The notes under the pieces are model-generated. The model searched no databases and was not told the origin of the DNA. It was given only the letters and a program-made list of their open reading frames with translations. Positions 5,903-60,222 of a stretch of 64,000 nucleotides of DNA are shown here, in pieces. The stretch is from the NCBI GenBank assembly GCA_964360585.1, contig CAYHXC010000005.1, positions 7,947 through 71,946 on the forward strand, written 5' to 3'. Positions within the stretch are counted from its first letter, which is position 1. Every line of letters starts with the position of its first letter. The translations under genes were made by a program, and so were the position numbers. The DNA comes from an uncultured Candidatus Saccharibacteria bacterium. GTDB lineage: Bacteria > Patescibacteriota > Minisyncoccia > UBA6257 > 2-01-FULL-56-20.

Positions 5903-6029
5903 GTCATTGCGCCTGTCCGTCGAAGCCTCGGCGTAGGTGGAAGCTTCAGTAGGAGCGTGGCAATCTTGAGTCGATAACTCTTAGATTGCTTCGTTTCATC
6001 GAGCTAAGCTCGATTTCACTCGCAATGAC
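5903..6029. repeat. Nested-palindrome MITE-like repeat, copy A (GTCATTGCG...GTGGCAATCT...AGATTGC...CGCAATGAC)
   Basis: Terminal inverted repeats GTCATTGCG/CGCAATGAC flank an internal inverted repeat GGCAATCT/AGATTGC. It sits between the convergent ends of the ftsQ-like gene and dnaE. Confidence 0.7.
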
Positions 6030-6049
6030 AGAATGACAATTTCTTACTC

Positions 6050-9000
6050 TCAACTAAGGCTTACGGCGTTCTCGCAAATCATCTTCGGTTCGCCGTTTCG
6101 CCAGGAGATTTTTCCTTTGAGATAGATGACATTGCTTTCCTGCCAGACCTGGCCTGTTTTGTTTAAGATGTCGTTAAAGACAACGACCTCGAGCGGTTTT
6201 ATGGAGAAGTCTTCGATGTGGGCAAAAAGCATTGGCTGGCCGTTTTTCGTCACAATCTTCTGGATGCGGGAAATAAGACCAAGGATCTTTATCGTCCGGC
6301 CGTCATTTTGGGGTTCCCGGGCCTGGTCGATCGGCGTGCTTTGCCACTCTTTCATTTTATTCGTGAAGCGATTCAAGGGATGATCGGAAAGGAAAAATCC
6401 CAAGAGTTCTTTTTCCCAAACCAGTTTTTCCTGGTCGTTCGTGGCCGCGTTTGGTTTTTTAAGCGTAAGCGTGGCTGTTGGCGGATGGTTGTTGCCAAAA
6501 AGGGAATTCACTGATTCGGTGGCGGCGCGTTTCATGGTTGAACTGAACTTCAGTATCTCATCCATGTTTTCGATAATTTCCTGACGGTCAATTTTCAAGG
6601 AGTCGAAGGTGCCGCACTTGGCCAAGCTTTCCAGGGATTTTTTATTGAGATCCTTGTGATGAATGCGGCGGACAAAATCGTTAAAGTCCTTGAATGATCC
6701 ACCGCGACTTCGCTCTTCGATAATATTCTCCACAATCGCCGCCCCGACATTTTTAATAGCCAGAAGACCGAACCGGATACCAAGACCAGCGCCTTCTTCT
6801 GGGGTGAAGGTTACAAAACTGCGATTGATGTCTGGCGGAAGAATCTGAATTTTCTGTTCCCGTCCTTCCTGGATCAAAAACGAAATACGTTCGATGTCAT
6901 TCATTTCCGCGTTCAAAAGACTAGCCATGAATTCCAGGGGATAGCGGGCCTTCAGATAGGCGGTTTGATATCCAATTAAAGCGTAGCAGGCGGCATGGCT
7001 TTTGTTGAAGCCGTACCGAGCAAACGGCGGAAAGAGTTCCCAGATGGCTTTAGCGGTTTTTTCTGGAATGCCGTTTTTCTCCATGCCCGAGATTAACTTT
7101 TCTTTTTGTTCATCGAGCAGGGATTTAATTTTTTTACCGATAGCTTTGCGGAGTGTGTCAGCTTCAGCCAGAGTAAAACCGGCCAAACTGCGGGCGATCT
7201 GCATCATCTGCTCCTGATACACACCGATGCCATAGGTCATGCCGAGAATCGGCTCAAGTTTGGGGTGAAGATACGTTATTTTTTCCTTACCTTCTTTGCG
7301 TTTGATAAACGATGGAATCAGTTCCATCGGTCCGGGACGGAATAAAGCCACGAGTGCGATCAGATCTTCGAGCATCGTCGGTTTCATTTCTTTCATGTAC
7401 CTTCGCATGCCGCTCGACTCAAACTGGAAGACGCCGGTTGTGTCGCCGGCTTGGAGGAGGGCGAAGGTGGCGGCATCATCAAGCGGCAGTTTTGACATGT
7501 TGATGTTTTCACCGCGTGTTTCGCGAACGAGGCGGATGGTGTCTTGAATGGTCGAGAGGTTACGAAGGCCGAGGAAGTCAATTTTCAAAAGTCCGAGATC
7601 CTCCACGGTACGCATTTCAAACTGGGTGATGATACTTGTCTTATCTTGCGGGGCAAACTGGAGCGGAACGTGATTTACAAGTGGATCTTTCGAAATCACC
7701 GTGCCGCAGGCGTGGACTGAAGCGTGACGCGCCACGCCTTCTAAGTGAAGCGCCACGTCAATCAATTTTTTTGCATCAGTGTTCGTGGTATAGAGCTGTT
7801 TTAGTTCCACAACGTCGTCCAAGGCGGTCTGAAGCTCAAGATGCGGCGTCGGTGGAATCAGTTTGGCAATCTGATCACAGAAATCGTAGGACAGTCCCAT
7901 GGCTCGGCCAGCGTCACGAATCGCGGCGCGCGCCGCCATCGTTCCAAAAGTAATAATTTGGGCCACACGGTCCTGGCCATATTTTTCTCGGGCGTAAGCG
8001 AGAACCTCGTCGCGGCGCGTATCGGCAAAATCGATATCGACGTCAGGCATCTGGATACGATCAGGGTTCAAGAAGCGTTCAAAGAGAAGATCGTAGGCGA
8101 GGGGATTGATGTCGGTGATGCGGAGAATGTATGAAAGCAAGCTACCAGCGGCCGATCCACGGCCTGGTCCAACAGAAATGCCGTGGTCTTTGGCCCAGTT
8201 GATCAAATCCTGGACGATTAAAAAGTAATCGGCGAAGCCAGTTTTTTCGATGACGCTCATCTCGTACTCAATTCGCTCCAAGACTTCCGGTGTTTGTTCT
8301 TCTTTGGTAAATCGTTCGCCGATCCGTTCGTTTACGAGATCGCGCAAGTACTCGTTTGCCGATTTGCCGTTTGGTTTTTCAAAGTGAGGAAGGAGAATGC
8401 CGCCCAATTCCAGTTCAAGATTGCACCGATTGGCAATGACTTGGGTGTTCACGACTGCTTCTGGTATAAAAGAAAATTTTTCCGCCATCTCTTCGGGCGA
8501 AGGCATAGAGAAGTCCTCGTCTTTCATGCTCAAACGGTCATCATCGCTCAAACGATTGCCGGTTTGAACCGCTAACAAGATGTCGTGATACTCGGCTTCG
8601 TCTTTATGTAAGTAATGGCTATCCTGGGTGGCGACAAGCGGTACGCCCGTTGTTTTTGAAAGTTCTAAAAGGAGTGGTTCGAGCTGTTCGGATTCCGGAA
8701 TATTCGGATGTTTCTGAATCTCGAGATAATAATTGTCCTTGCCCATAATCTCCTGATACTCAAGAGCGATTCGCTTAGCCTCATCTTTTTTTCCGGCGAG
8801 CAAGGATTGGGCGATCTCTCCTCCAAGACAAGCCGAAAGGGCGATCAGACCTTCGTGATGTTCGCGGAGAATTTCCTTATCAATGCGCGGTTTATAATAG
8901 TAGCCCTCGAGATGCGCGCGCGTGGAAAGCCGGATGAGATTTTTCCAGCCGACCATGTTGGTCGCGAGAAGAATGAGGTGATAGTACTTTTCGCCGGGAT

Positions 9001-9232
9001 CACGTGAGAGGCGAGTCTTTGGAGCAACGTACGTTTCAATGCCGATAATTGGTTTTACGCCCGCTTTCTTCGCTTTTTTATAAAACTCGATCGCCCCATA
9101 GAGGACACCGTGGTCAGTCAAAGCCACACTTTCCATCCTCTGGTCTTTGACGTGTTTTACGAGATTGTCGATTTTGGCGAGTCCGTCCAAGAGGGAGTAG
9201 TGGCTATGAACGTGGAGATGAGTGAACTTCAT
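6050..9232 (-). CDS. dnaE: DNA polymerase III alpha subunit
   Basis: N-terminal PHP domain MKFTHLHVHSHYSLLDG, polymerase core, and OB-fold; 1060 aa. Confidence 0.95.
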   Translation of the reverse strand: MKFTHLHVHSHYSLLDGLAKIDNLVKHVKDQRMESVALTDHGVLYGAIEFYKKAKKAGVKPIIGIETYVAPKTRLSRDPGEKYYHLILLATNMVGWKNLIRLSTRAHLEGYYYKPRIDKEILREHHEGLIALSACLGGEIAQSLLAGKKDEAKRIALEYQEIMGKDNYYLEIQKHPNIPESEQLEPLLLELSKTTGVPLVATQDSHYLHKDEAEYHDILLAVQTGNRLSDDDRLSMKDEDFSMPSPEEMAEKFSFIPEAVVNTQVIANRCNLELELGGILLPHFEKPNGKSANEYLRDLVNERIGERFTKEEQTPEVLERIEYEMSVIEKTGFADYFLIVQDLINWAKDHGISVGPGRGSAAGSLLSYILRITDINPLAYDLLFERFLNPDRIQMPDVDIDFADTRRDEVLAYAREKYGQDRVAQIITFGTMAARAAIRDAGRAMGLSYDFCDQIAKLIPPTPHLELQTALDDVVELKQLYTTNTDAKKLIDVALHLEGVARHASVHACGTVISKDPLVNHVPLQFAPQDKTSIITQFEMRTVEDLGLLKIDFLGLRNLSTIQDTIRLVRETRGENINMSKLPLDDAATFALLQAGDTTGVFQFESSGMRRYMKEMKPTMLEDLIALVALFRPGPMELIPSFIKRKEGKEKITYLHPKLEPILGMTYGIGVYQEQMMQIARSLAGFTLAEADTLRKAIGKKIKSLLDEQKEKLISGMEKNGIPEKTAKAIWELFPPFARYGFNKSHAACYALIGYQTAYLKARYPLEFMASLLNAEMNDIERISFLIQEGREQKIQILPPDINRSFVTFTPEEGAGLGIRFGLLAIKNVGAAIVENIIEERSRGGSFKDFNDFVRRIHHKDLNKKSLESLAKCGTFDSLKIDRQEIIENMDEILKFSSTMKRAATESVNSLFGNNHPPTATLTLKKPNAATNDQEKLVWEKELLGFFLSDHPLNRFTNKMKEWQSTPIDQAREPQNDGRTIKILGLISRIQKIVTKNGQPMLFAHIEDFSIKPLEVVVFNDILNKTGQVWQESNVIYLKGKISWRNGEPKMICENAVSLS

Positions 9233-9329
9233 AGGGTCTAGGGGTTAGTGTAGAGGGTGGCAAATAGCAAACACTCTTGACGTGATTGTAATGGAAAAAC
9301 TCTATTACTGAAAGCCTAGTTTTTTTGTC

Positions 9330-9400
9330 GGTCATTGCGCCTGCCCGGCCGTAGTTTTAACAAAGGAGGGAGGAGCGAATCGACGTGGCAATCTCTAGTC
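9330..9400. repeat. Nested-palindrome MITE-like repeat, copy B (truncated or half element)
   Basis: GTCATTGCGCCTGCCCG...GGAGGGAGG...CGACGTGGCAATCTCTAG. It shares the left TIR and the inner-arm module with copies A, C and E, but has no right TIR. Confidence 0.55.
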
Positions 9401-9441
9401 ATTCGGTATAAGTTGTGGTAATTTTTGGATGCATTTGCCCT

Positions 9442-9514
9442 CCTAACTTTCGAGTGTTGACGAGGAATGGAAGCCCAATTGGAGTATTAGTCATTTCTCG
9501 AAAGTTAGGAGGGT
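9442..9514. other. Long hairpin (17-bp stem, CCTCCTAACTTTCGAG/CTCGAAAGTTAGGAGG) upstream of the tRNA cluster
   Basis: Perfect inverted repeat with a ~38-nt loop, directly in front of the tRNA-like 5' half at 9518. Confidence 0.5.
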
Positions 9515-9517
9515 AAA

Positions 9518-9560
9518 GCCGCCCTAGCTCAGTGGTAGAGCAGCGCTTTTGCTCCGACGC
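9518..9560 (+). other. tRNA-like 5' half (acceptor strand GCCGCCC plus D-arm) with no anticodon arm
   Basis: GCCGCCC-TA-GCTCAGTGGTAGAGCA is near-identical to the 5' part of the downstream tRNA-Thr. Its acceptor strand is complementary to the 3' half at 9706-9748. Confidence 0.45.
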
Positions 9561-9608
9561 ACTATTTATGATTAAACTAAAGAAGTCGGAGTCCCGACAA
9601 TCAATTTT

Positions 9609-9680
9609 GCCGAAGTAGCTCAGTGGCAGAGCAACTGTTTTGTAAACAGTAGGTCGTGGGTTCAAATCCCACCTTCGGCT
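9609..9680 (+). tRNA. tRNA-Thr (anticodon UGU)
   Basis: Full cloverleaf: acceptor GCCGAAG/CTTCGGC, D-arm GCTC/GAGC, anticodon arm ACTGT-TTTGTAA-ACAGT, T-arm GTGGG-TTCAAAT-CCCAC. Confidence 0.85.
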
Positions 9681-9705
9681 CAAATATGGCAAAATTATTC
9701 GTCGG

Positions 9706-9748
9706 GATAAACAGTAGGTCGTCGGTTCAAATCCGACGGGCGGCTCCA
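9706..9748 (+). other. tRNA-like 3' half (anticodon 3' strand, variable loop, T-arm, acceptor GGGCGGC, encoded CCA)
   Basis: AAACAGT-AGGTC-GTCGG-TTCAAAT-CCGAC-GGGCGGC-T-CCA. Compensatory T-stem changes relative to tRNA-Thr(UGU) argue against a decaying pseudogene. The acceptor strand pairs with the 5' half at 9518. Confidence 0.45.
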
Positions 9749-9755
9749 TGATTAT

Positions 9756-10181
9756 GTGGAGTATACTTTAAGGATGATAGAGAAAAACTACATCGATAAA
9801 TTGGCTTGGATATACGTTAAGGACGGGAAGGTATTGAGTACTCGTTCGAAAGGAAAAGATACGTATTACATTCCTGGTGGCAAGCGGGAGGGAAATGAAA
9901 CAGATTTACAGGCATTGATGAGAGAAATACAGGAAGAGTTAAATATTGAGCTTATTCCTGAGACAGTGGAGCATTTTGAAACCTTTGAAGCACAAGCTCA
10001 TGGAAAGCCAGAGGGAACGGTGGTGAGAATGACGTGCTACACGAGTGGCTTCCGAAGAGAAATAAAGGCCAGTTCGGAAATTGAGGAAGTGGTATGGCTG
10101 GATTATTCGGGCAGAGAAAAAAGTTCTCCTGTAGATAAATTAATCTTTGATTACTTGAAGAACAAAAATCTTATCGGCTAG
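9756..10181 (+). CDS. NUDIX hydrolase
   Basis: NUDIX box GGKREGNETDLQALMREIQEELNI. Confidence 0.8.
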   Translation: MEYTLRMIEKNYIDKLAWIYVKDGKVLSTRSKGKDTYYIPGGKREGNETDLQALMREIQEELNIELIPETVEHFETFEAQAHGKPEGTVVRMTCYTSGFRREIKASSEIEEVVWLDYSGREKSSPVDKLIFDYLKNKNLIG

Positions 10182-10194
10182 TTTATCAATCCCT

Positions 10195-10497
10195 ATGAAA
10201 TCAAAAGGGTTTGGTGTTGGCGTGTTGGTGGGAGTAGCAGTGGTGATTCTGGGCTCAATATATCTATTTACCCCGTACTGTTTCTTGCGTCCGACTATTT
10301 TTCCGCCGGACGTACCAGCTTGTCAGGGATTCTTGAGTTACTTCGGCTATCCAATTTTAGCGATCATGATTCCATTGACGTGGCTTGGTATTTCGGAGAA
10401 TTTAGCTTTTGATTTGAGCATCATCGTTCTAATTCTGCTCGGCGGACTCATGGGGAAAATTCTACAGTGGTTCTATAAAATTGTGTCCAAAAAATAA
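10195..10497 (+). CDS. Hypothetical small membrane protein (about 3 TM helices)
   Basis: Hydrophobic 100-aa ORF with tight spacing to its neighbours. Confidence 0.45.
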   Translation: MKSKGFGVGVLVGVAVVILGSIYLFTPYCFLRPTIFPPDVPACQGFLSYFGYPILAIMIPLTWLGISENLAFDLSIIVLILLGGLMGKILQWFYKIVSKK

Positions 10498-10511
10498 GAG
10501 AGTATAATCTA

Positions 10512-10718
10512 GTGAGAATCGGAGGTGTTATGAGTAACTGGGACGGGGAAAACTGGAAAAAACCAGAAGGGCATAGAAAAGATTTAGCAAGTGTGGAGTA
10601 TAGGGGTTCTTTCGGCACAATTCCCTATGACCGCGCCACTAGGAATCCACTTTGCCCCAAGTGCGGAGGAGAAACGGATCAAGCAGGGGAGCACTGTCTT
10701 AGTTGTCTATTGGGATAG
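10512..10718 (+). CDS. Hypothetical zinc-ribbon protein
   Basis: CPKCGG...CLSC C-terminal CxxC...CxxC pair. Confidence 0.4.
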   Translation: MRIGGVMSNWDGENWKKPEGHRKDLASVEYRGSFGTIPYDRATRNPLCPKCGGETDQAGEHCLSCLLG

Positions 10719-10842
10719 ATTATAGAGCTCAACCGTTCTGGTTCGCCAGCACGGTTTTTTTTGACTATTCAATTTAATCCCAGTAAAGACATTGTTGTGG
10801 TACACTAACACTATATTAGTTACTTAGTATACTGTAATACAT

Positions 10843-11427
10843 ATGATCGAGAAGAAATATCTTGAAGAGAAGTATATTCGAAATAAGAAATCAACAAGAG
10901 AGATAGCGATCGAGCTCAAGTGTTCTGAGCACAAGGTGAATTACTGGCTTGGGAAGCATAATATTTTAAAGAGGAATATCAGTGAAGCAATTTATCTGTA
11001 CCATAATCCGAATGGCGACCCTTTTGTTTTTTACGAGCCGAAGAATCAAGAGGAGTCTTTTCTTTTTGGCCTCGGCCTAGGTCTTTACTGGGGTGAAGGA
11101 ACAAAAGCGGACAAAATGTCAGTCCGTCTCGGTAATACTGATCCAAACTTGATAAAAAAATTTATAGAATTTCTTGTAGTAATATTCGGAATTGATAGAT
11201 TAGATCTTCGTTTTGGTCTCCAGTTATTTTCGGATATGAATGTCGAAGAAGCTATGGACTTTTGGATGAAAAGCCTTAGAATTTCAAAAGCTCAGTTTTA
11301 TAAGGTGGTAGTTACGCCCTCTCACAAAATTGGAACGTATCGTAAAAAGACTCTGTATGGAGTTTTGACTGTTTATTACCACAATAAGAAACTGAGAGAT
11401 TTACTAATCAGTAAATTGCCGTTGTAG
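10843..11427 (+). CDS. LAGLIDADG-like homing endonuclease (single-motif type) with an N-terminal HTH
   Basis: FLFGLGLGLYWGEGTKADKMSVRLGNTDPNLIKKFIEFL resembles the LAGLIDADG motif and following helix. N-terminal STREIAIELKCSEHKVNYWL looks like an HTH. The stop codon TAG overlaps the first bases of the intron-containing tRNA. Confidence 0.45.
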   Translation: MIEKKYLEEKYIRNKKSTREIAIELKCSEHKVNYWLGKHNILKRNISEAIYLYHNPNGDPFVFYEPKNQEESFLFGLGLGLYWGEGTKADKMSVRLGNTDPNLIKKFIEFLVVIFGIDRLDLRFGLQLFSDMNVEEAMDFWMKSLRISKAQFYKVVVTPSHKIGTYRKKTLYGVLTVYYHNKKLRDLLISKLPL

Positions 11428-11700
11428 CTCAGCTGGTAGAGCAACTCCATGGTGGATCGCAAAATCCTGCCCATCAAAGGAGAAATCCTTTGATGAATCC
11501 CGAATAACGGTTAACGGCCAAACAGTGGCTAAGACCGTGGCCCAATTGAGGGCCCGAACGACTGACAAGGGCCCCGCCAACCTTCGATGATCTTGAATAT
11601 ATCGAGGGCGGGGAAGATACAGTCTAGCCTTCTAGGATGTTTTTAAAACTAGAAGTGTAAGCGAAGGAGTAGGTCGCCGGTTCAATTCCGGCCAACGGCT
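11418..11700 (+). tRNA. tRNA-Thr (anticodon GGU) interrupted by a ~210-nt group-I-like intron in the anticodon loop
   Basis: 5' exon GCCGTTG-TA-GCTCAGCTGGTAGAGC-A-ACTCC-AUGGU (11418-11453). 3' exon AA-GGAGT-AGGTC-GCCGG-TTCAATT-CCGGC-CAACGGC-T (11664-11700). Acceptor and anticodon stems are complementary across the insertion. The 5' exon ends in U and the insertion ends in G, as at group I splice sites. Confidence 0.65.
11454..11663 (+). other. Group-I-like intron in the tRNA-Thr(GGU) anticodon loop, after position 36
   Basis: Highly structured 210 nt with multiple hairpins, ending in G. No internal ORF; the putative homing endonuclease lies immediately upstream instead. Confidence 0.5.
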
Positions 11701-11807
11701 CAAGGAGTTTTAGATAGGAAGAATTACCGAGATTTTCGGGGATAGAATAGATTTATGGTTAAGCATCCTGAAGTTTGTCAACTTTTAAGTAGTTCTCATC
11801 GTCTTAG

Positions 11808-12587
11808 CTATCCACGAAGCCCCAAAAAATTATTTAATAAACTAGGAATTCCCAAAGCTAAAGTAGCAATAACAGTAGCCACCACGGTATACAGTAATTG
11901 TTTTTTTGCTTTGGTTAAATTTTCACTTTCTCCTCTAGCCCAAACGTATAAATAGGCAGAGTAAAGACCAGAACCAGCGATAATAGTCCATAAAAGAATC
12001 TGAAATTGAGTTACAATACCGGTCAGTAAGCCTACGATATCCTGAACCGAACAAATTGGCCCTTGGCATGGAGGTAAAGAAAGTGAGTTATTTGATCCTC
12101 CGGTTGGTGGAGTAGAATTATTGGGACTAGCGTTGGAAGGAGGCGGATTGAGTGGTGTGGGAGGATTAGGGGGGCTACTAGCGGGAGGTTGCGGAGGTGG
12201 ATTCGTATTTGCCGTAGGAGACTTCCACTGATTTTCTGGAGCATTTGGGTCAACCAGATAATAGTTATCTAGGGAATCGTAATGTGTACAACGAATTGCT
12301 TGGCGCTTATCAGCAAAACTTGGTAATCCATTAATGATATATTGACAGTCGGACAAGACTTTTGACTCACACACCGGATCGCTGCTCGGCATATTGTAGA
12401 CAGGACATATTGGTTTCCACTCACCGGTAGCGAGCAATCTTACCTGTATTCTCCAGGCTATGTCGTTGGATCCGGGTATGGCTTGGTTAGGGTTTCCCCA
12501 GAATGACTTGAGTATTGCGTGTGTCGTTATTGGAGTAGCCAGTAAAATAACGGCAATAAAGAACTTGTACGACCTAAGAGGAGCCAT
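11808..12587 (-). CDS. Secreted protein with a Pro-rich linker and a C-terminal two-TM pilin-like (TrbC/VirB2-like) region
   Basis: Signal peptide MAPLRSYKFFIAVILLATPITTHA, a Cys-containing domain, a P-rich PPPQPPASSPPNPPTPLNPPPS linker, and a C-terminal hydrophobic hairpin with a charged loop (ARGESENLTKAKK). Confidence 0.45.
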   Translation of the reverse strand: MAPLRSYKFFIAVILLATPITTHAILKSFWGNPNQAIPGSNDIAWRIQVRLLATGEWKPICPVYNMPSSDPVCESKVLSDCQYIINGLPSFADKRQAIRCTHYDSLDNYYLVDPNAPENQWKSPTANTNPPPQPPASSPPNPPTPLNPPPSNASPNNSTPPTGGSNNSLSLPPCQGPICSVQDIVGLLTGIVTQFQILLWTIIAGSGLYSAYLYVWARGESENLTKAKKQLLYTVVATVIATLALGIPSLLNNFLGLRG

Positions 12588-12731
12588 ATTAAGGAAAGAT
12601 ATTATAATCTAGGTGTTCGCCGCCTTACTATAGCAAATAAGTGACGGCTAACGGTAGGCAGGTTGTGGACAGCAGCTCCGAAATGGTAGAATGGGACGAA
12701 AGGTTTATACTGAAGAAAATTATATACCCAC

Positions 12732-13628
12732 ATGAATTTCGAATCAATGCCAGGGGCTAGTGAAGTTCCCTCAGAAGATCAAGAAAGTATCGAATTGGCT
12801 GAAAAAACTGAAAATTTTACGTTAAATCTTAAGGAAGTTGCTAAATTAAAAGTACTGAAGAAGTACGCTGAAGAAATGGGAGGTGATTCTTTTGACATAA
12901 ACACCCACGCTCTCATCAAAGATTTCGATAGCTATATGGCGAGAAGAATTCCAGAAATCGGGTTAGAGAAAGCAGGTGTAGAGATGCGCAATATGGTAGA
13001 TGAGGCATTCCAGAGGATTCCCGAAAACAAGCGTGCTGAGTTATTTGAAGCCATTAAGAGTGAAAGTAATGAGATAGATCAACCCGAAATTGAGACGAAG
13101 GAAGAGAGGGAACCCACAGAAGCAGATCAAGAAGAAAAGAAGGACGATGGAGTAAAGACCCGATTAGAGGCCAGGGATTCTCCATTAACTGTGCGTGATG
13201 CGGTCGAGATAATGAAAGACGCCCAATCTTTACGGAGTTTCTGGGAAGTAATGAAAAGATTTGCTACAGATCAGGGAATAGGTTTTGAAGTTGCTAGACG
13301 AGGAGTTAATAACAGTAAATGGCCAACTATTTTTGACGAATTTGATCGAGTTATCATTGAAGGAGATGAGCAGAAGATTTTCCTTGATGATCTAAAGAAG
13401 GCAAGGTCGGTCGAGGAGATAAAATCTGCTCTAGTTGATATTGCTCGCGTGCAGGATCTTCCTGAAGGCGAAGTACGTTTCAAAGTGGGAGAACATGGTG
13501 GAGGGGGTGGAGATCTTTCTGGGTATTTGGACTATATTGATCGTTGCGATAAAGATAAGACACGTCTGGTACAGAATCCTAAAGATCCGATCCGAGCAGC
13601 GGTTGCGCGAGTTTTGGAGTTTAGGTAA
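12732..13628 (+). CDS. Hypothetical acidic protein
   Basis: 298-aa Glu/Asp-rich ORF with no recognisable motifs. Confidence 0.4.
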   Translation: MNFESMPGASEVPSEDQESIELAEKTENFTLNLKEVAKLKVLKKYAEEMGGDSFDINTHALIKDFDSYMARRIPEIGLEKAGVEMRNMVDEAFQRIPENKRAELFEAIKSESNEIDQPEIETKEEREPTEADQEEKKDDGVKTRLEARDSPLTVRDAVEIMKDAQSLRSFWEVMKRFATDQGIGFEVARRGVNNSKWPTIFDEFDRVIIEGDEQKIFLDDLKKARSVEEIKSALVDIARVQDLPEGEVRFKVGEHGGGGGDLSGYLDYIDRCDKDKTRLVQNPKDPIRAAVARVLEFR

Positions 13629-13784
13629 GGTGAGTCAAAATCTTGAAACTTGCAGTTCCCTTCATATTCTAGTACTATGAGGCTCATTGATTTTGTGTCT
13701 AGATGTGGGCTTCCGCTTTCTCCGCCAGCCGGCGGATTCGGCGGGACACTCATGTTTTTAGATACATCATAGATTTATAAAAAC

Positions 13785-14818: not shown

Positions 14819-14821
14819 CCT

Positions 14822-15010
14822 TCGCCTCGCTGTAGCTCGGCTTCGGCGCGGTAAAACCCGCCATGACGAGCGAAAGCGGGATTCGGTACGCCGAAGCGTA
14901 CCTACGGCGTGATAAAACCCGCCGAAGGTTCGCGGAGGAGACCTTCGCCTTGCCAAAGCTCTAAAGAGCATAGGCGAGCTTCGTCAAAGCTTCGGCGCGG
15001 CAAAGCCCGT
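14822..15010. repeat. GC-rich structured repeat (family CTCGCCTCGCTGTAGCT...GCGAAGCGGG) directly 3' of tRNA-Trp
   Basis: Internal direct repeats GCTTCGGCGCGG(T/C)AAA(A/G)CCCG and stems GCTTCGGCG/CGCCGAAGC. Related copies occur at 25375-25500 and 63770-63850. Confidence 0.5.
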
Positions 15011-15016
15011 AAAAAG

Positions 15017-15253
15017 ATGAATTACGTTTATATTTTAGAGTGTGGCGATAATGGGTTTTATACTGGTTGTATGAATGATCCAGGTAAAAGGTTAGAGCGT
15101 CATAAAGGGGGCAAAGTCCCAGCAACCAGAGATCGGTTGCCCGTTAAGCTAACTTCTTACTTCGCTTTTGATAATAAATATACCGCTTTCAATTTCAAAA
15201 AATACCTTAAATCTGGTTCGGGCCAGACCTTTCTCAAAAAGCATCTCGTGTGA
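15017..15253 (+). CDS. GIY-YIG nuclease-family small protein (YhbQ-like)
   Basis: MNYVYILECGDNGFYTGCMNDPGKRLERHKGG. The track ORF starts at 14909, but the ATG at 15017 gives the canonical GIY-YIG N-terminus. Confidence 0.65.
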   Translation: MNYVYILECGDNGFYTGCMNDPGKRLERHKGGKVPATRDRLPVKLTSYFAFDNKYTAFNFKKYLKSGSGQTFLKKHLV

Positions 15254-15755: not shown

Positions 15756-18071
15756 ATGCACAAAAAATATCTCCTTGGACTTTTTGTCGTCGTTGGTCTT
15801 TTCTCAGTTTCGTATGGTGTTTTCGGACAAACGTTTTCTGATCCAGCTTGTCCTCCTCCAGGGTGTAATAGTTACGCCCCAATTAGCGTTGGTCCTACAC
15901 CGCAATTTAAGGCGGGCAATCTTACTATCTATAGCCCCACGGTCACCGGCACGATAGCGAGCGATATTCTCCATGTTCGAGGCGGAGCGTTGATCAATTC
16001 CAGTAATACTCCCAGTGGAAAAGCTTTACTCGTTCCATTCGGTCATATAGGACTTGGGACAGAATCACCTGATCCAGCTTACACTGTTGACATTCGTGGA
16101 AGTCTTGGCTTTGGAGGTAATGTAATACCAAAAATTGAGCTTGGCAAGCCAGACGCTGGTGGGCCAATCCACCGTACAGAAGGATTATTGGGAGTAGCTG
16201 GAAATATTGTTATGAATCCTGGCATCCTCGGGAAGCGTTTTGATATGAGATATTCAGGATTTCTCGGGGGCGGCGAAGGTGGTAGTTTGCAAACGTTTAA
16301 TGGGACTATTACCCAGGGAGATATCAGTATACTGCCCGACCTATCTTTTGGAAAAGCGCCTACTGGAGATGAGGGTAATATTTACATGAAGTCAGGAGCC
16401 AGGCAGGGTAGTGTTATTGTTGGTAATGATGGATTCCAGACCCTTCGCGTGTACGGAGATATTAATGCCACTGCGAAACCAAGCCCTGCTTGGGCGTATA
16501 TCTTAGATCCATACGACGCACCGAACCCGGTGAAAGATGAGAATGTGGCTATTAATCACAACACTCCACTTGCTTCTATTGCCTGGCCGGCGGCGTGGAA
16601 TGGTGCCAATCGGATGACCTGTGACGTTTCAGTGACGAGTACTAACTGTGGGAGTAGCATTCCTGGAACAGCGGGCGGACTGGGATATCGATACGATATC
16701 TATATTAAGGCTGAAGGAGCGGTTGGGACAAATTGTGGAGTTCCTCCTAGCGGCAATTCGAGCTGCACCTTTACTGCTTATGCCTATCGTTACTATCTTG
16801 CTCCCGCGGCAGGAGCACTGGAAGGAGGAAGCATTTTCGGATCAAATCTGTTTGCTGATCGCGGTAGCTTCACAGGAAGCGTGGAAGCAGAGAATCTAAC
16901 TGTTAGTAAGATAGTGCAAGTAGGGGATGCCCTTCGTGTCGGTGGCACCAATGGGATACTACTGAGAGATAATGGTGATGCACAACTTGGAAAAGACTTT
17001 AAAGTCACTTCCTCGACGATAGATATTGCTGGAAAAAATTTAATTGTAGATCGGGGAGATATCCATACTAAGAATCTCTTGGTTAGCAGTGATACGATAA
17101 TCCTAGGAACACTCATTCCAGTGCGAATGTGCTTGGGTGGCGTATGTCACACGTCTTGGCCCACGAGTACAACTCCTGGCCCGGGTCCTGGTCCAGGAGG
17201 CGGAGTTACCGGCACAGGCGCCGTGAATCGCATGGCGGTTTGGACGGGGACTTCAACTGTGGGCCCGTCTAATTTAAGGGAGGCAGGGACTGTTCTTTCA
17301 ACCGGTGGTGTATTTGGAGTGGGGACTAATAGTCCTGAAGTAACTCGAGCACTGACAATTCAGCCACCAGCGGGACAGTTTGGTTGGCTACAACTCAAAG
17401 ATAATACTGGGGCAAATAAGTGGCATATAACGGGATTTGCGAATGGGTTAAATATCTCAGAAACTGGGGTAGCCGATCGTTTCTTCATTGCGGCTGGTGG
17501 TAATATCGGTATCGGAAAAACCAATCCAAATGCAACGCTTGAGGTTAAGGGCGACGTTAAGATTACGAGTACGGGAGCAGATAATGTTGCGTTTCATTTT
17601 GAGCCGAATGCCGGGCGACTCACCGTTGGCAGTCCGACTCAATCCGGTAAAATTTATGTAACGAGAAATAGTATTCCAACCATTCAGATCGATGGTAATA
17701 GTGGCAAAGTAAATGCCGGTCAGTTCTGCGACATTAACGGCAATAACTGCATCACTCCCGGAGGAGCCGGAGGTGGTGGTTTGGGAAACTGGACCACTAT
17801 TGGAAATGGATGGGTCGTTAATAACGCTCCAACCGATGGATTTGTCCTCGTCAGATTCAAGCAAGTGTTTGGTGGCGGTGGTCAAAGCGTTCCTTGTTCC
17901 GCTTCCATTGAAAGCCCAGTTGGCACCGTGAGACAACAAACAGATCTTCCCACGAGTGGAGTCGTACTTACTGATTCTCTTATGGCGCCGATTAAGAAAG
18001 GGGATGGTTGGAAGATGGTGACAACTTGCGCGGGATCGAATGGGTATTACTGGATTCCGATGGGGAACTAA
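15756..18071 (+). CDS. Large secreted Gly/Thr-rich repeat protein (surface, adhesin or fibre-like)
   Basis: Signal peptide MHKKYLLGLFVVVGLFSVSYGVFGQ. The 771-aa protein is Gly-rich with a PGPGPGPGGGVTGTG tract and repetitive beta-rich segments. Confidence 0.55.
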   Translation: MHKKYLLGLFVVVGLFSVSYGVFGQTFSDPACPPPGCNSYAPISVGPTPQFKAGNLTIYSPTVTGTIASDILHVRGGALINSSNTPSGKALLVPFGHIGLGTESPDPAYTVDIRGSLGFGGNVIPKIELGKPDAGGPIHRTEGLLGVAGNIVMNPGILGKRFDMRYSGFLGGGEGGSLQTFNGTITQGDISILPDLSFGKAPTGDEGNIYMKSGARQGSVIVGNDGFQTLRVYGDINATAKPSPAWAYILDPYDAPNPVKDENVAINHNTPLASIAWPAAWNGANRMTCDVSVTSTNCGSSIPGTAGGLGYRYDIYIKAEGAVGTNCGVPPSGNSSCTFTAYAYRYYLAPAAGALEGGSIFGSNLFADRGSFTGSVEAENLTVSKIVQVGDALRVGGTNGILLRDNGDAQLGKDFKVTSSTIDIAGKNLIVDRGDIHTKNLLVSSDTIILGTLIPVRMCLGGVCHTSWPTSTTPGPGPGPGGGVTGTGAVNRMAVWTGTSTVGPSNLREAGTVLSTGGVFGVGTNSPEVTRALTIQPPAGQFGWLQLKDNTGANKWHITGFANGLNISETGVADRFFIAAGGNIGIGKTNPNATLEVKGDVKITSTGADNVAFHFEPNAGRLTVGSPTQSGKIYVTRNSIPTIQIDGNSGKVNAGQFCDINGNNCITPGGAGGGGLGNWTTIGNGWVVNNAPTDGFVLVRFKQVFGGGGQSVPCSASIESPVGTVRQQTDLPTSGVVLTDSLMAPIKKGDGWKMVTTCAGSNGYYWIPMGN

Positions 18072-18130: not shown

Positions 18131-18373
18131 ATCTCCTAAGACCACAGGTTGGCGAAAGCCCTAAGTCGGACTCTGTCCGATCCTGTCGAGGACCATACAT
18201 TAGGGTTTAGGGTATGGGGTATAGTGGGTAGTAACTATCCACTAATCACTATCCACTAATCACTAATTACTGTCCGACCTTGGGAATAAAGGTCGTTTTT
18301 ATTTTGTTCCCAAAACAAAATAAACCCTGCGAAGCTTTGAAGTCGAAGCGAAGTAGGGTAATCAATAATCTAG

Positions 18374-18886
18374 ATGAAAACAAAAGCAAAGAAAGTTGAG
18401 GAGCTGGCGAAGGCCAAGACCTACTTGAAAGATAGTAAGGCCTTGTTGTTCACGAATTTGACCGGCATGCCGGCGGAAAGTTTGCGAAAACTGCGTCGCG
18501 CTATGAGCGAACAAGGAGTTAACTTTTTCGTTCTGAAGAAGCGACTCTTAGGGATTGCCTTGAAAGATAAAGGAATCGACGTCAATCCGAAAGAAAAATT
18601 TTCCGCTTCAGTCGGCACGGCTTTTTCTCCACTCTCGATCCAGGAGGTGAGTGCGATTGCGCACAAGTTCTTGGCGAGCGCCGGCAGTAAGAAAAGCGAA
18701 GAGATGCTCGGTGGTTTCGATCTTGAAACCAGTGAGTACATCTCCGGCGAGGACGTGCAGATGTTGGGTAAATTACCGTCACGCGAGGTCCTTATTGGCC
18801 AGGTGATGGGCGGTATGATCGCTCCGCTTCGTGCTTTCTTGTATATCTTGAGCGAGAAGTCGAAGCAGGCAGCCCCCACACCATAA
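18374..18886 (+). CDS. rplJ: 50S ribosomal protein L10
   Basis: MKTKAKKVEELAKAKTYLKDSKALLFTNLTGMPAESLRKLRRAMSEQGVNFFVLKKRLL. Confidence 0.9.
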   Translation: MKTKAKKVEELAKAKTYLKDSKALLFTNLTGMPAESLRKLRRAMSEQGVNFFVLKKRLLGIALKDKGIDVNPKEKFSASVGTAFSPLSIQEVSAIAHKFLASAGSKKSEEMLGGFDLETSEYISGEDVQMLGKLPSREVLIGQVMGGMIAPLRAFLYILSEKSKQAAPTP

Positions 18887-18895
18887 CGAGTTTTT

Positions 18896-19153: not shown

Positions 19154-19198
19154 ACTCGTTTGGTGTGGGGGAGGTCGAAACTAATAAACTAAAACAAC

Positions 19199-46185: not shown

Positions 46186-46278
46186 GTTATTGCGAGAAAC
46201 GTAGTGACGTGGCAATCTTTTAAAACACTTTAGATTGCCGCGCTTCGTCGAGATTAACTCGACTTCGCTCGCAATGAC
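46186..46278. repeat. Nested-palindrome MITE-like repeat, copy D
   Basis: GTTATTGCGAGAAACGTAGTGACGTGGCAATCTT...TTAGATTGCCGCGCTTCGTCGAG...CGCTCGCAATGAC. Confidence 0.65.
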
Positions 46279-46675: not shown

Positions 46676-48064
46676 ATGCCCCGCAAGAAAAATATAACTC
46701 AAGCGACGCTGTGGGGAACGGATAGTGGAAAGGGTATAGGGGATAGTGAAAAGAAGACACGCAAGAGGAAGCGTGAAAGTGATAAGTCTCTATCCACTAA
46801 ACCCTATCCACTAACCCCTGCCCAAATCTTCACCGTCGGCGGCTATCTTTTTCATCTTGGGAAATTGGTCGGTGCAGAAGAAGTTATTGTGCAAGGCGAG
46901 ATCTCGGGATTTAAGAATCATCAGGTCGGTGGATTTTTTTCGCTCAAGGATACTGATGGCGATGGACTTTTGAAGTGCTATATGCCGCCGCGATTTTTAA
47001 GTCAGGTTGGTTTTCCCCTCGAGGACGGACTTTTAGTTCAGGTGAGAGGTGTGGCCAGTATCTATAAACCGCGCGGGGAATTGAGCTTTACGGTCCAGAG
47101 TATTTCTTTGGTTGGCGACGGTTCAATTCGACAAGCTTACGAGGCTCTGAAGAAAAAATTAGAAGACGAGGGACTTTTTTTACGCAAACGAGAACTGCCC
47201 GAGTTTATTGAGCGGATTGGATTTATTACGGCGAAGAGCGGTGAGGTGATTCACGATTTTCAGAGAAATTTGAAATCCCTGGGTTTTGCGGTCGACTTGC
47301 TGGATGTTCGTGTACAAGGAAGTGATGCGCCGCCGCAGATTGTTCAAGCGATCGAAACTTTGAACAAATTAAAATCCGTCGAGGTCATTATCATTGCGCG
47401 TGGTGGAGGAAGTTTAGAAGACTTACAAGCCTTCAACGATGAGCGGGTGGCGCGGGCGATTTTCAAATCAGAGATTCCGATTTTGGCCTCAATTGGTCAC
47501 GATCGTGATGTGCCGATTGCGAGTCTAGTTTCTGATCTCTATGTTTCAACACCATCAATAGCCGCCATTACCATGAATCGCTCTTGGGAGCGATTGGAGT
47601 CGCAGTTGCCGCTTCTTGTGTCTGATTTGGTATATGGTTTTGAAAATGTTCTAGATATAAAGAAAAGCGCCACGAGAACTGAACTCAATAAACTTCTTTT
47701 CGGTATGGAACGACTTCTGCGGATTCCTCGTGAGTTTCGATCGCGACTGAAACTCGAACTATTTAAGCTCGGTCGAGAAAAAGACGAATTAAAACTGAGG
47801 ACTCGCCGAGGTCTCACGACTGTAGTACAATCGTTTGAGATTCGGATACGCGAGATTATGGCGATACTCAAGTCATGTTCCAGCTATTTTCAAGGAGTGA
47901 GTCCTGAACGAAATCTCCATCTGGGATACAGCATCGTGCTCGGCTCCGATGGCCGAGTAGTCAAAAAGACCGACGACCTGACGATCGGAGAAAAAGTTTC
48001 TACACTTCTTGCGGACGGATCATTTATTTCAAAAGTGGAACAAAAACAAAAGAAAACCTCATGA
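46676..48064 (+). CDS. xseA: Exodeoxyribonuclease VII large subunit
   Basis: OB-fold N-terminus (IFTVGGYL...VQGEISGF) and catalytic region (IIIARGGGSLEDLQAFNDERVARAIF). It carries an unusual Lys-rich N-terminal extension. Confidence 0.85.
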   Translation: MPRKKNITQATLWGTDSGKGIGDSEKKTRKRKRESDKSLSTKPYPLTPAQIFTVGGYLFHLGKLVGAEEVIVQGEISGFKNHQVGGFFSLKDTDGDGLLKCYMPPRFLSQVGFPLEDGLLVQVRGVASIYKPRGELSFTVQSISLVGDGSIRQAYEALKKKLEDEGLFLRKRELPEFIERIGFITAKSGEVIHDFQRNLKSLGFAVDLLDVRVQGSDAPPQIVQAIETLNKLKSVEVIIIARGGGSLEDLQAFNDERVARAIFKSEIPILASIGHDRDVPIASLVSDLYVSTPSIAAITMNRSWERLESQLPLLVSDLVYGFENVLDIKKSATRTELNKLLFGMERLLRIPREFRSRLKLELFKLGREKDELKLRTRRGLTTVVQSFEIRIREIMAILKSCSSYFQGVSPERNLHLGYSIVLGSDGRVVKKTDDLTIGEKVSTLLADGSFISKVEQKQKKTS

Positions 48065-48326
48065 CCAGAGCTCATCTCAAAAATAGCTCCGCCGCGTTTC
48101 CCTCTATTTTGTCTGTCCACCACGACGCGACGAGGAGACATATGCCAGAGCATAGGCTTCGAGGAGTAACAAAGGTGGCGGACAAAATAGAGAGAACCGA
48201 GGGGATAGGAATTATTGCCGCGGAGACGGTGTTGCTACGTCCTCACTGTACCGCTAGTACACTTTCGGACTGGCGCCTTGTCTCCCTCGCCAATAATTCT
48301 CTATCGCGGCAGGATATATTTTTAAG
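48061..48326 (+). repeat. Structured repeat (candidate ncRNA), copy A, inserted between xseA and xseB
   Basis: Starts at ATGACCAGAGCTCATCTCAAAAATAGCTCCG, overlapping the xseA stop, and ends ...TCTCTATCGCGGCAGGATATA. It is homologous to 63660-64000 with compensatory base changes in a long-range stem (48103-48121 with 48174-48193). Confidence 0.6.
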
Positions 48327-59822: not shown

Positions 59823-60038
59823 TTGCGGTTGGCTGTGTGTGGGGTAATAATTGGAAGAGTATGTTCCCTTGCTCCTATGGAGGAATCAATGAAAAAGTGG
59901 ATCTTCGACCATGCCTTGCTTCTCATGATCGTTTTCGCAGTCGTTCTTTTCGGGGGCATACTGATCACCCTGGATCACGTGAATCGCGACCGGGATCCCG
60001 AACAGATTATCAAGAGTTCCAACCGCCATCCACTATGA
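59823..60038 (+). CDS. Hypothetical small membrane protein
   Basis: One TM helix (LLLMIVFAVVLFGGILI). Confidence 0.3.
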   Translation: MRLAVCGVIIGRVCSLAPMEESMKKWIFDHALLLMIVFAVVLFGGILITLDHVNRDRDPEQIIKSSNRHPL

Positions 60039-60085
60039 GATGTGCGGTTTTTTAATCGAAAGATTCCCAAAAAGAAATGAAGCTC

Positions 60086-60112
60086 CACGGGCTGAAGCCC
60101 GTGGTTTCTTAG
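60086..60112 (+). terminator. Rho-independent terminator (CCACGGGCTGAAGCCCGTGG plus a U-run)
   Basis: GC hairpin followed by TTTCTT. Confidence 0.55.
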
Positions 60113-60129
60113 AGCTCAAGCTTCGCTTG

Positions 60130-60222
60130 TCCGCATGTCATTGCGCCTGCCCGCCTCTGGAGGGAGCAAGGCGAAGTAATCTAGATTGCCACGTCGCTAC
60201 GCTCCTCGCAATGACATGCGGA
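60130..60222. repeat. Nested-palindrome MITE-like repeat, copy E (extended TIR TCCGCATGTCATTGCG / CGCAATGACATGCGGA)
   Basis: Left TIR plus GGAGGGAG box, as in copy B. The right half GATTGCCACGTCGCTACGCTCCTCGCAATGAC is the reverse complement of copy C's left half. Confidence 0.7.

Follow-up and report, generated by a model that had tools for sequence, protein, structure and literature searches.

The DNA analyzed here, referred to as the window, is a 64,000-nucleotide stretch of contig CAYHXC010000005.1 from an uncultured Candidatus Saccharibacteria bacterium of the Patescibacteria, and its intergenic spacers harbor five copies (A to E) of a short palindromic element, at positions 5903 to 6029, 9330 to 9400, 42619 to 42734, 46186 to 46278, and 60130 to 60222. 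The copies were found exactly where an earlier note, made from the sequence alone, had placed a nested-palindrome family. They are assembled from a stem-loop unit with an unpaired 5′ tag and are probably mobile, non-autonomous repeats of the repetitive extragenic palindrome (REP) type. Across bacteria, the family is coupled, with sharp boundaries, to the gene for a small GIY-YIG nuclease, and we infer a partnership between the two.

Stem-loop units and their head-to-head dimers

Scanning for the left end and then the right end of the unit on one strand resolved the five elements into nine half-units. These conform to the consensus TGTC-ATTGC-GAG...CG-NR-GCAAT-CT, a stem-loop of 32 to 63 nt. 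The tag, TGTC, remains unpaired at the 5′ end and is followed by a basal stem of 5 bp (ATTGC/GCAAT) and by a small internal loop that is conserved and places GA opposite G-N-R. The apical hairpin varies freely in sequence, G[GAGC]NNN[GCGA]C with its tandem G.A pairs being a frequent form, and the unit closes with a CT(N) tail. The apical helix consists of five pairs, two of which are usually G.A, closed by a 3-nt loop, and much larger apices occur in other units. The tag is TGTC in seven of the nine window units, GGTC in B, and TGTT in D-L, while the basal stem is present in every one of them (with GTAAT in E-L). Three unit types were distinguished. Type 1 (C-L, D-L, and E-R) is the short form of 32 to 33 nt (GTCATTGCGAGGAGCGTAGCGACGTGGCAATCT); type 2 (A-L, B, C-R, and E-L) carries an additional segment of 18 to 42 nt, CCTG(C/T)CCG...GGAGG, after GCG, which renders the unit branched and behind which a type-1-like apex is still visible in B and C-R; and type 3 (A-R and D-R) has YGAAR-[6-7-bp hairpin]-YGAAR in place of the apex.

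Element A (127 nt), located between the convergent open reading frame (ORF) 5049-5879 and dnaE, is a tag-outward dimer in which a 16-nt spacer separates A-L (5903-5966, plus strand), a branched type 2 unit composed of TGTC-ATTGCG, the inserted hairpin CCTGTCCG...GTAGG, and AGCGTG-GCAAT-CT, from A-R (5983-6029, minus strand), a type 3 unit reading ATTGC-GAG-TGAAA-[TCGAGC TTA GCTCGA]-TGAAA-CGAA-GCAAT. Unit B (9331-9394, plus strand) is a singlet upstream of dnaE, adjoining a tRNA-associated variable region, and consists of a type-2 insertion followed by a type-1-like apex (GAGGAGCGAATCGACGTG). Element C (117 nt), between the terminator of an RRM-protein gene and the next gene, joins C-L (42619-42652, plus strand; type 1, GTCATTGCGAGGAGCGTAGCGACCGCGGCAATCT; 49.1 bits with the covariance model) across a 21-nt spacer to C-R (42674-42734, minus strand), a type 2 unit with a CCC-GCA-GGG apex and a 1-nt deletion giving rise to CATGCG. 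The earlier observation that position 42734 lies 6 nt before an ATG is literally correct, but alignment with a close relative indicates that the true start codon is likely the ATG at 42759. Element D, between two small minus-strand ORFs, pairs D-L (46186-46218, plus strand; type 1 with tag TGTT and a AGATCCGCGT extension from 46176; 45.2 bits) with D-R (46232-46278, minus strand), a type 3 unit with symmetric CGAAG/CGAAG loops, the spacer being 13 nt. In element E, the short type 2 unit E-L (60137-60182, plus strand), which displays GTCATTGCG from 60137 and a TCCGCAT extension from 60130, abuts E-R (60183-60215, minus strand; type 1, 57.5 bits; ATGCGGA extension to 60222) without a spacer at the junction TCTAGA, and the element is flanked by GC-rich hairpins at 60085-60104 and 60234-60253.

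A sixth copy, F, is situated approximately 0.7 to 0.75 kb upstream of window position 1, at 16955-17015 of the same-strain contig L001 (contigs and loci retrieved for comparison carry L numbers), and is, together with its flanks, 79% identical to E across 205 nt; the two copies are paralogous composites which differ by an 18-nt type-2 hairpin in one half. No further copy was detected in the window by a covariance-model scan with filters off, nor was a new one present in 5.4 kb of added sequence beyond it. E and F also lie within a larger composite of approximately 205 nt (window 60072-60275 and L001 16895-17080, 79% identical), whose bounding GC-rich hairpins, CCACGGGCTGAAGCCCGTGG (60085-60104) and CCCGGGCTGAAAGCCTGGGG (60234-60253, followed by TTTT), are terminator-like and may themselves represent a further small repeat family.

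Four of the five window elements, together with copy F, are thus head-to-head (HH) heterodimers resembling REPINs: all tags point outward, the length is approximately 80 to 130 nt, and the two units are always of differing type. The type order is 2+3 in A, 1+2 in C, 1+3 in D, and 2+1 in E, with F combining a type 1 unit with a short 27-nt unit, and the spacers (16, 21, 13, 0, and 0 nt in A, C, D, E, and F, respectively) are mutually unrelated. The "outer" and "inner" inverted repeats of the earlier note are explained by the two conserved ends of this single unit being seen in opposite orientations. Its "module inversion" is likewise explained by heterodimers occurring in either order, so that a flip-flop at a CTAG core need not be invoked.

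The shared motifs exceed expectation: GTCATTGCG occurs exactly seven times in the window where simple arithmetic predicts approximately 0.5 occurrences of a 9-mer (64 kb, both strands), and GTGGCAATCT exactly five times against approximately 0.12 (10-mer, both strands, 64 kb), while with one mismatch allowed the latter rises to 11 occurrences compared with 3.1 ± 1.6 in shuffled sequence, a value reached by none of 100 shuffles. Repeat detection also recovered the relations among copies that had been described previously, namely, a 24-nt perfect reverse-complement match between the left half of C and the right half of E and an 81% complementarity between B and E, in addition to the relation between B and C and a 43-nt match (88%) between the left half of D and the right half of E which takes in the AGATCCGC(A/G)T extension. 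The extended TCCGCATGTCATTGCG arms reported for copy E are present.

When folded as single-stranded DNA, whole dimers are much more stable than their shuffles (z = -4.2 for A, -2.8 for C, -4.7 for D, and -5.4 for E), and single type-3 units moderately so (z about -2). Among 102 distinct units, covariation in the apical stem amounted to 43 cells changed on both sides compared with 4.1 ± 1.8 after column shuffling (reached in 0 of 500 trials), and pairing was far lower in all slid controls; a model-based realignment of 111 distinct units yielded 56 double-sided changes versus 5.6 in shuffled alignments. The G.A/A.G positions of the common form are retained by 72 of the 102 units, the remainder having Watson-Crick pairs there, and the type-3 loops are CGAAG/CGAAG in D-R and TGAAA/TGAAA in A-R, a change on both sides. 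Two positions outside the search pattern are also conserved: the G before TCATTGCG is invariant in all 102 members, and GCAATC is followed by C or T in every member except one. A K-turn was considered for the tandem G.A pairs and rejected on inspection of the alignment, as its conserved G-C pair and three to four extra 3′-strand nucleotides do not fit this layout, and an integron attC site was dismissed since the ends do not match GTTRRRY/RYYYAAC (by inspection).

Distribution and relationship to known repeats

Exact protein matches assign the window to 0.1-µm-filtered groundwater metagenomes of Hainich well H51. Relatives identified through DnaE are Patescibacteria/Parcubacteria metagenome-assembled genomes (MAGs), the closest being OZ246418.1 (L125, 84% amino acid identity) and H41-bin141_1 (L126, 86%). 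Filled and empty sites were compared, as the earlier note had suggested. In L126, the dnaE stop overlaps the convergent gene, while in the window these genes are 170 nt apart and enclose the 127-nt element A. In L205, whose TypA and flanking DNA are each 91% identical, 16 nt separate the RRM-gene terminator from a start codon; in the window, the terminator is followed by 34 nt, the 117-nt element C, a further 24 nt, and the homologous ATG at 42759. At site D, the TypA-xseA spacer measures 922 nt in the window versus 175 nt in L205, which lacks a segment of approximately 750 nt (window 45755-46675) that contains element D between its two ORFs (46422-46589, 55 amino acids, and 45793-46113, 106 amino acids; neither with a Pfam match). 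On the minus strand, this segment also exhibits a terminator-like hairpin at 45776-45755 and, at 46639-46612, a sigma-70-like promoter that matches at 12 of 12 positions and has a TG extension.

No units were present in approximately 46 kb of orthologous DNA of L125, L126, and L205, and 80 related Parcubacteria dnaE loci (1.28 Mb) contained clear units only in L146 and L193, with one doubtful match in L166. Judged from these genomes, which are 9 to 25% diverged, the presence of the elements is lineage-specific. The presence of the family in unrelated genomes, coupled with the empty orthologous sites A and C of the closest relatives, bears out the description of a dispersed, intergenic, non-coding palindromic family as opposed to a local duplication. 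Assemblies of the same population (L001-L004, L332, and L333) are colinear and revealed no orientation variants; L001 matches the window at 99.99% over 16271 nt, gene coordinates match in L332 and L333, and contigs L002-L004 end near elements B and A.

The variable region adjoining unit B (9230-13780) borders tRNA-Thr (9609-9681); within it, tRNA halves recur at 9518-9551, 9708-9746, and 11663-11701, and a 28-nt inverted repeat occupies 9434-9517. The stretch from dnaE to approximately 13780, with a NUDIX gene and several small ORFs, is mostly without an L125 counterpart, that genome retaining only a 39-nt piece resembling a tRNA 3′ half and a 37-nt piece, both 100% identical. It looks like a set of islets integrated at a tRNA gene.

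The family is also encountered in many unrelated genomes, including viral and metagenome contigs and cyanobacterial and Dehalococcoidales genomes. At least 120 IMG/VR contigs match the pattern TCATTGCGAG-N15-GCAATC, several with multiple copies, and the 15 free positions are non-random, being mostly G[GAGC]NNN[GCGA]C and otherwise, for example, GCCC-GCA-GGGC, CCCC-GAA-GGGG, GCAC-GAA-GTGC, or GTCG-TTT-CGAC. Covariance model R1 produced 277 matches in 0.93 Mb of the matching IMG/VR contigs listed, some of which are tag-outward dimers and others same-strand tandem arrays in intergenic DNA of phage-like contigs. Across all fetched loci, adjacent pairs of units are in the "+-" configuration in 80 cases, compared with 26 "-+" and 54 tandem pairs, and ATTCC/GGAAT basal-stem variants were seen by inspection to act as dimer partners. 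Type-2 units are found in soil, groundwater, and marine metagenomes with the inserted hairpin conserved as CCTGYCCGCC-loop-GGNGG(R)AGG; in the 17-mer scan by which they were sought, 57 of 132 matches were followed by a GNAATC end within 90 nt, and approximately half of all matches arose by chance in coding DNA. The same-strand arrays (L020 at 2670-2856, 11850-11965, and 12666-12781, as well as L056, L076, and L013) have a period of 37 to 45 nt, occupy many intergenic spacers, and use one strand per contig, which is the sense strand of the genes in L076 and the antisense strand in L020, L056, and L013.

No Rfam family accounts for the element. At the gathering threshold, Rfam 15 returned only tRNAs from the window and nothing from five unit-rich loci, and permissive scans over A, C, and D gave chance-level matches only. 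Nor is the element a canonical intrinsic terminator, one of the functions formerly suggested for it: its hairpins lack a subsequent T-tract, no T-run follows A, C, or E, and a scan of 42000-47000 reported the true terminators near C and D, which are separate hairpins with T-tracts, but not the elements themselves, bar a weak call inside D-L. A DNA-uptake site fits poorly with five copies per 64 kb which are always structured dimers.

REPs have been sorted into GTAG-tagged and CGTC-tagged superfamilies (Di Nocera, De Gregorio & Rocco 2013, PMC3733652). According to that paper, the terminal tag of the CGTC class often becomes TGTC and also CCTC, the stem starts with a complementary AT and is a regular one of 8 to 9 bp with a loop of 4 to 5 nt, and the 3-nt tail is close to CCA. 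The same paper describes these REPs as occurring mainly as HH dimers with tags outside, heterodimers included, with spacers of 1 to 100 bp and sometimes complementary ends; it lists five phyla, identifies Neisseria dRS3 and Rickettsia RPE-4/RPE-6 with the class, and reports no associated transposase, even in species encoding tyrosine transposases. Many REPs are argued there to act as RNA elements.

Measured against this description, the window family shares the unpaired 5′ tag and the AT-first stem, the predominance of HH dimers, including heterodimers, with variable spacers whose ends are sometimes complementary and no neighboring transposase, and an intergenic location (between convergent or same-direction genes) that is patchy among relatives. 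It departs from it in that the regular stem is replaced by a 5-bp basal stem, an internal loop, and a G.A apical helix and in that two of its variants have an extra hairpin or a longer apex (32 to 63 nt); furthermore, Patescibacteria lie outside the five phyla listed there. The short unpaired 3′ tail gives a mixed picture, being CT(N) in the window units and CCA, CCG, CCC, or CTC elsewhere in the family. Because the regular stem of 8 to 9 bp with its 4- to 5-nt loop is absent and the tail of the window units is CT(N), the window family is probably best described as a variant of the (C/T)GTC-tagged REP kind rather than as a member of one of its four described families. A 2025 REP survey (PMC12306157) and a 2018 survey of HUH endonucleases (PMC6006769) added nothing on the CGTC class or on Patescibacteria.

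The arrangement also resembles that of REPINs and the REP-associated tyrosine transposase (RAYT; Bertels & Rainey 2011, PMC3116915) and of the bacterial interspersed mosaic elements of E. coli, in which two inverted REPs form one longer hairpin that is the unit of spread. As in the REPIN-RAYT system (PMC3116915), singlets resemble decayed dimers and there is no target-site duplication. REPINs, however, bear a GTAG tag and depend on a Y1 (HUH) tyrosine transposase (PMC3116915), while the window family has a TGTC tag and GTAG at neither end. A RAYT-like motif (NHxHLL...YIxxNP) was not found in the window or in the 120 unit-bearing viral loci listed, and within the approximately 71 kb of the genome analyzed, a Pfam scan of neighboring genes identified no transposase. 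RAYT-like genes (COG1943-type, NHYHL...YIHTNP) do occur near dnaE in the Parcubacteria MAGs L143 (4712-5473) and L152 (2791-3492), though they are not flanked by ATTGC units and their loci lack a convincing unit.

Small dispersed repeats of cyanobacteria, described by Elhai and colleagues in 2008, are reportedly very short, hairpin-forming repeats that insert without duplications and are sometimes nested. The ATTGC unit is abundant beside cyanobacterial GIY-YIG genes (Calothrix 336/3) and may be comparable in kind to those repeats. A literature search with strings of the element's sequence retrieved nothing relevant, the one match being a PCR primer.

A small GIY-YIG nuclease gene bracketed by the units

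The association with a GIY-YIG nuclease gene is the most interesting outcome of this analysis; it is statistical and architectural in nature and derives mostly from DNA outside the window. A survey of ORFs filling the space between two oppositely oriented units provided 13 candidates, two of which (L263 and L314) encode GIY-YIG proteins of approximately 95 amino acids, the gene in each case occupying precisely the spacer of a dimer of the ATTGC-type HH kind. A local hidden Markov model (HMM) detected further GIY-YIG ORFs in unit-bearing metagenome loci, and all six of these (five independent) are no more than 50 nt from units. For an independent test, loci were chosen by protein homology alone, because selection on the repeat was to be avoided; 40 IMG/VR loci with 1-kb flanks were fetched in this manner, of which 39 were analyzed. 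A GTC-tagged hairpin unit is present within 200 nt of the ORF in 36 of these 39 loci and on both sides in 29. Two layouts predominate: unit-ORF-unit, the tags facing outward, in 14 loci, and HH dimer-ORF-HH dimer in 10. Counted in 200-nt bins, units number 54 and 43 immediately beside the ORF versus 1 to 9 per bin at greater distances. Inverted matching between the upstream and downstream 200 nt produced a median score of 23 and a score of at least 14 in 27 of 36 loci, compared with 0 of 33 windows displaced by 600 to 800 nt and 6 of 36 mismatched upstream/downstream pairs.

The stem sequences vary by locus (ATTCCCGC, ATCCCCGC, ATGGCCGGGC, ATGCTCGCC, and ATTGC, among others), and the two sides of one gene match: units flanking one gene are of the same subtype, and subtypes differ between loci. 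Such same-subtype flanks are expected both if the nuclease is cognate to its units and if the gene homes and, consequently, do not discriminate between these models. Non-orthologous loci display 65 to 76% homology over approximately 380 bp, starting and stopping within 2 nt of the outer tags.

The small GIY-YIG family is very large, comprising no fewer than 7,982 clusters at E ≤ 1e-10. Its members match Pfam PF01541 and are annotated only as "GIY-YIG nuclease family protein," "putative endonuclease," or, erroneously, "excinuclease ABC subunit C." In a Dehalococcoidales MAG (L379), the order is GTCATTGCGAGGAGCGCTTGTGACGAAGCAATCT, 18 nt, ATG...TGA, G, and AGATTGCTTCGCTTCGCTCGCAATGAC, the units being those of the window's ATTGC family, and ATTGC units or dimers lie beside a GIY-YIG gene in Calothrix sp. 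336/3 and two other genomes. Comparable arrangements are seen in N. gonorrhoeae CP119142.1, with a GIY-YIG gene among dRS3-type units, on plasmid AZO_p3 of A. lipoferum 4B, where WP_014249537.1 is encoded between sufB and sufC and flanked by one HH dimer upstream and one downstream, and on pSymB of S. meliloti, with the gene inside an HH dimer. The genera in a plasmid collection that encode the protein (Rhizobium, Sphingobium, Sinorhizobium, Neisseria, and Azospirillum) overlap the CGTC-positive genera named in PMC3733652. No paper linking the small GIY-YIG family to REPs was encountered in the open-access literature searched.

With respect to architecture, the bracketed gene parallels the REPIN-RAYT system, in which a repeat-bracketed, single-copy enzyme gene is the proposed driver (PMC3116915), but the GIY-YIG nuclease is of unrelated fold and chemistry to RAYT. 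The small gene, which interrupts pairs of conserved genes (rplJ-rplL in the window; sufB-sufC in A. lipoferum) and varies in its presence from one relative to the next, is also reminiscent of free-standing GIY-YIG homing endonuclease genes, such as the Seg genes of T4. It differs from these in encoding a catalytic domain of approximately 80 to 95 amino acids with a short basic tail and no separate DNA-binding domain and in being bracketed by palindromic repeats of which many ORF-less copies also exist.

The window itself contains a GIY-YIG gene within arms of a different kind. A cassette at 18867-19171, inserted cleanly between rplJ and rplL, encloses an 85-amino-acid GIY-YIG gene (18896-19153; PF01541) within 11-bp perfect inverted arms, CCCCCACACCA / TGGTGTGGGGG, and extends rplJ by four codons. 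In L125, the corresponding junction reads ...GGCA TAA AAGAT AGGTCGAAA...ATG(rplL), a spacer of 30-odd nt without arms or gene, compared with ...GGCA [ GCCCCCACACCA TAA CGAGTTTTT ATG...TAA ACTCGTT TGGTGTGGGGG ] AGGTCGAAA... in the window. The cassette arms resemble a second palindromic family with five ORF-less window copies (ATCCCCACACCTAAC...GTTAGGTGTGGGGAT), and one genome thus holds both an armed GIY-YIG gene and ORF-less copies of similar arms. The copies of this second family, of approximately 140 nt each, are located at 23766-23908, 26528-26659, 38069-38217, 39881-40028, and 43803-43948. Their arms, ATCCCC(A/G)CACCTAAC... and ...GTTAGGTG(T/A)GGGGAT, are 21 to 27 nt long and up to 100% complementary, and the spacer of approximately 92 nt contains a small hairpin of its own. 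The 3′ arm extends into a downstream start codon in four copies out of five (GGGGATGAA; TypA, an ABC ATPase, a CofD-like gene, and others), thereby supplying a Shine-Dalgarno-like GGTG(T/A)GGGG to which the 5′ arm is complementary, and the family looks like a repeated leader that sequesters the Shine-Dalgarno sequence or a promoter cassette.

Additional repeats were observed in the window. At 14821-15253, three tandem repeats of approximately 42 nt (TTCGCCTCGCTGTAGCTCGGCTTCGGCGCGGTAAAACCCGCC-like) directly follow tRNA-Trp and precede a 78-amino-acid GIY-YIG gene (15017-15253), and related copies of this repeat are present at 25366-25409 (after tRNA-Glu) and 63792-63835. Short tandem or low-complexity intergenic repeats, consisting of ATCCACTAATCACT units and (AGTTATT)n, occur at 18209-18278, 20063-20098, 31491-31526, and 46778-46819, and an 81-nt direct repeat, 80% identical, links the end of xseA (48051-48131) with that of a nusB-like gene (63650-63730).

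Origin and spread of the repeats

We consider it likely that these loci are copies of a REP-type family whose dimers spread non-autonomously and for which a small GIY-YIG nuclease would be the most likely partner. Spread of the dimers would proceed through a DNA process that depends on a hairpin or cruciform. The stand-alone nuclease (approximately 95 amino acids) is proposed to recognize the folded unit or dimer in this hairpin or cruciform form and to introduce a break, the repair or copying of which would spread the dimers, with the gene-bearing copy representing the autonomous form; alternatively, the same repair or copying would move the gene itself into pre-existing dimers by homing. The ORF-less dimers of the window would then be either non-autonomous derivatives or empty homing targets. 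As the elements sit in transcribed spacers (D intercistronic, A between convergent genes, and C and E near terminators), in which they persist, they may also act as RNA hairpins, as has been proposed for REPs generally. More tentatively, the (C/T)GTC REPs as a whole, comprising the window family, the Neisseria dRS3-type repeats, and their rhizobial relatives, might be non-autonomous partners or homing substrates of an unrecognized selfish element, a module of approximately 380 bp in which a tiny GIY-YIG gene lies between two inverted hairpin units and whose nuclease might recognize the hairpin or cruciform and start copying.

Several observations weigh against a mobile family driven by such a nuclease. 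No GIY-YIG gene was present in the 120 unit-selected viral contigs listed (1.1 Mb), neither of the two GIY-YIG genes of the window (15017-15253 and 18896-19153) is flanked by ATTGC units, and no unit-bracketed GIY-YIG gene was seen in approximately 71 kb of the organism's sequence. Transposition is not a known activity of GIY-YIG nucleases, and simple homing of the nuclease gene into dimers that already existed would account for the association just as well. With respect to the unit, single type-1 and type-2 units are predicted to be no more stable than shuffles (z approximately 0, under an energy model that gives no credit to tandem G.A pairs), and the fold at the level of the unit therefore rests on covariation rather than on predicted energy; the conservation of the basal stem and tag is partly built in, since both were fixed by the search patterns. 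Moreover, the IMG/VR contigs may include misclassified bacterial DNA, and given the 9 to 25% divergence of the compared genomes, exact insertion boundaries, and the distinction between insertion and deletion, are not readable.

The possibility that another agent, such as a Y1/HUH RAYT-like transposase acting in trans, moves or once moved the dimers, and that the GIY-YIG genes are independent selfish homing genes which favor dimer centers as safe landing sites and use the units as homology arms, is regarded as rather doubtful, yet it is not without support. Related Parcubacteria (L143 and L152) do encode RAYT-like proteins, GIY-YIG genes without units exist (L133, L156, L190, L147, L148, and window 15017-15253), most unit-bearing loci lack a GIY-YIG gene, and the window GIY-YIG gene enclosed by arms of another palindromic family hints that palindromes in general, rather than one cognate repeat, are preferred. 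The lack of units around the RAYT-like genes found, together with the missing transposase association of CGTC REPs in species that encode tyrosine transposases (PMC3733652), argues against such an agent. It seems improbable that the elements are instead functional RNA or DNA structures (mRNA 3′-end stabilizers, processing sites, insulators of convergent or neighboring genes, or protein-binding hairpins) maintained by selection at each site, their repetition reflecting recruitment of a common motif and not mobility. Their positions are typical of REPs (between convergent genes for A, behind a terminator for C, within an intercistronic minus-strand pair with a perfect promoter for D, and between terminator-like hairpins for E), the internal loop is conserved and the apex covaries with tandem G.A pairs, single units in several phage-like contigs are all on one strand and in some cases directly upstream of a ribosome-binding site and ATG, and RNA roles are argued for many REPs in PMC3733652. 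Nevertheless, the nearest relatives have compact spacers without elements at the orthologous sites, indicating that the elements are dispensable there; orientation to genes is mixed among the phage-like contigs, U-tracts and Rfam matches are lacking, and the unit is found across many phyla and also in viral contigs, where the repeats end sharply, as is more typical of mobile sequence.

The classical miniature inverted-repeat transposable element (MITE) suggested by the earlier note, i.e., a DDE-type insertion sequence that has lost internal sequence, keeps its terminal inverted repeats, and is moved in trans by its parent, is very unlikely. The elements do resemble MITEs such as Correia/NEMIS, Nezha, and RUP in being small (80 to 130 nt), non-coding, dispersed, lineage-specific, and intergenic, with inverted ends, in lying near genes or terminators, and in breaking assemblies. 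MITEs, however, are characterized by target-site duplications and a parent DDE transposase with matching ends; here, none of the six copies (A to F) has a target-site duplication, their flanks share no common direct repeat, and no transposase gene was seen beside units in the window or in the fetched loci. In addition, the supposed terminal inverted repeats (e.g., TGTCATTGCG...), which are a single unit's conserved 5′ and 3′ termini placed in opposite orientations, also end single units and same-strand tandem arrays, and halves of differing type are freely combined. Least probable of all is a substrate of invertible or site-specific recombination with the CTAG core as the crossover point. Such a reading draws on the abutment of the units of E and F at TCTAGA and on the occurrence of the same unit types in both orders (1+2 in C and 2+1 in E), but the core is absent from A, C, and D, both orders are expected from heterodimers inserted or assembled in either orientation, no recombinase gene is adjacent, and three same-population assemblies show no orientation variants.

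REPs are among the most abundant non-coding repeats of bacteria, and a driver, RAYT, is known only for the GTAG class; no later paper assigning a dedicated transposase to the CGTC class was found in the searchable literature. An irregular, modular member of this class probably colonized a tiny-genome lineage of the Patescibacteria recently, and REPs of the TGTC-tagged kind had not previously been described in that phylum, as far as PMC3733652 indicates. The stem-loop unit is common to very distant bacteria and viral contigs, and following it outward from the window revealed a tight, boundary-precise link with a very widespread small GIY-YIG gene. If this link is functional, the origin and spread of the repeat class would become directly testable, thousands of orphan nuclease genes would be explained, and the repeats would be flagged as a cause of breaks in MAG assemblies and of spurious ORFs ("...CHCA...SNLDCHVATLLAMT" in the frame of window 40040-60243). 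An orphan REP superfamily would thereby gain its missing enzyme, serving it as RAYT serves the GTAG REPs, albeit through a different chemistry.

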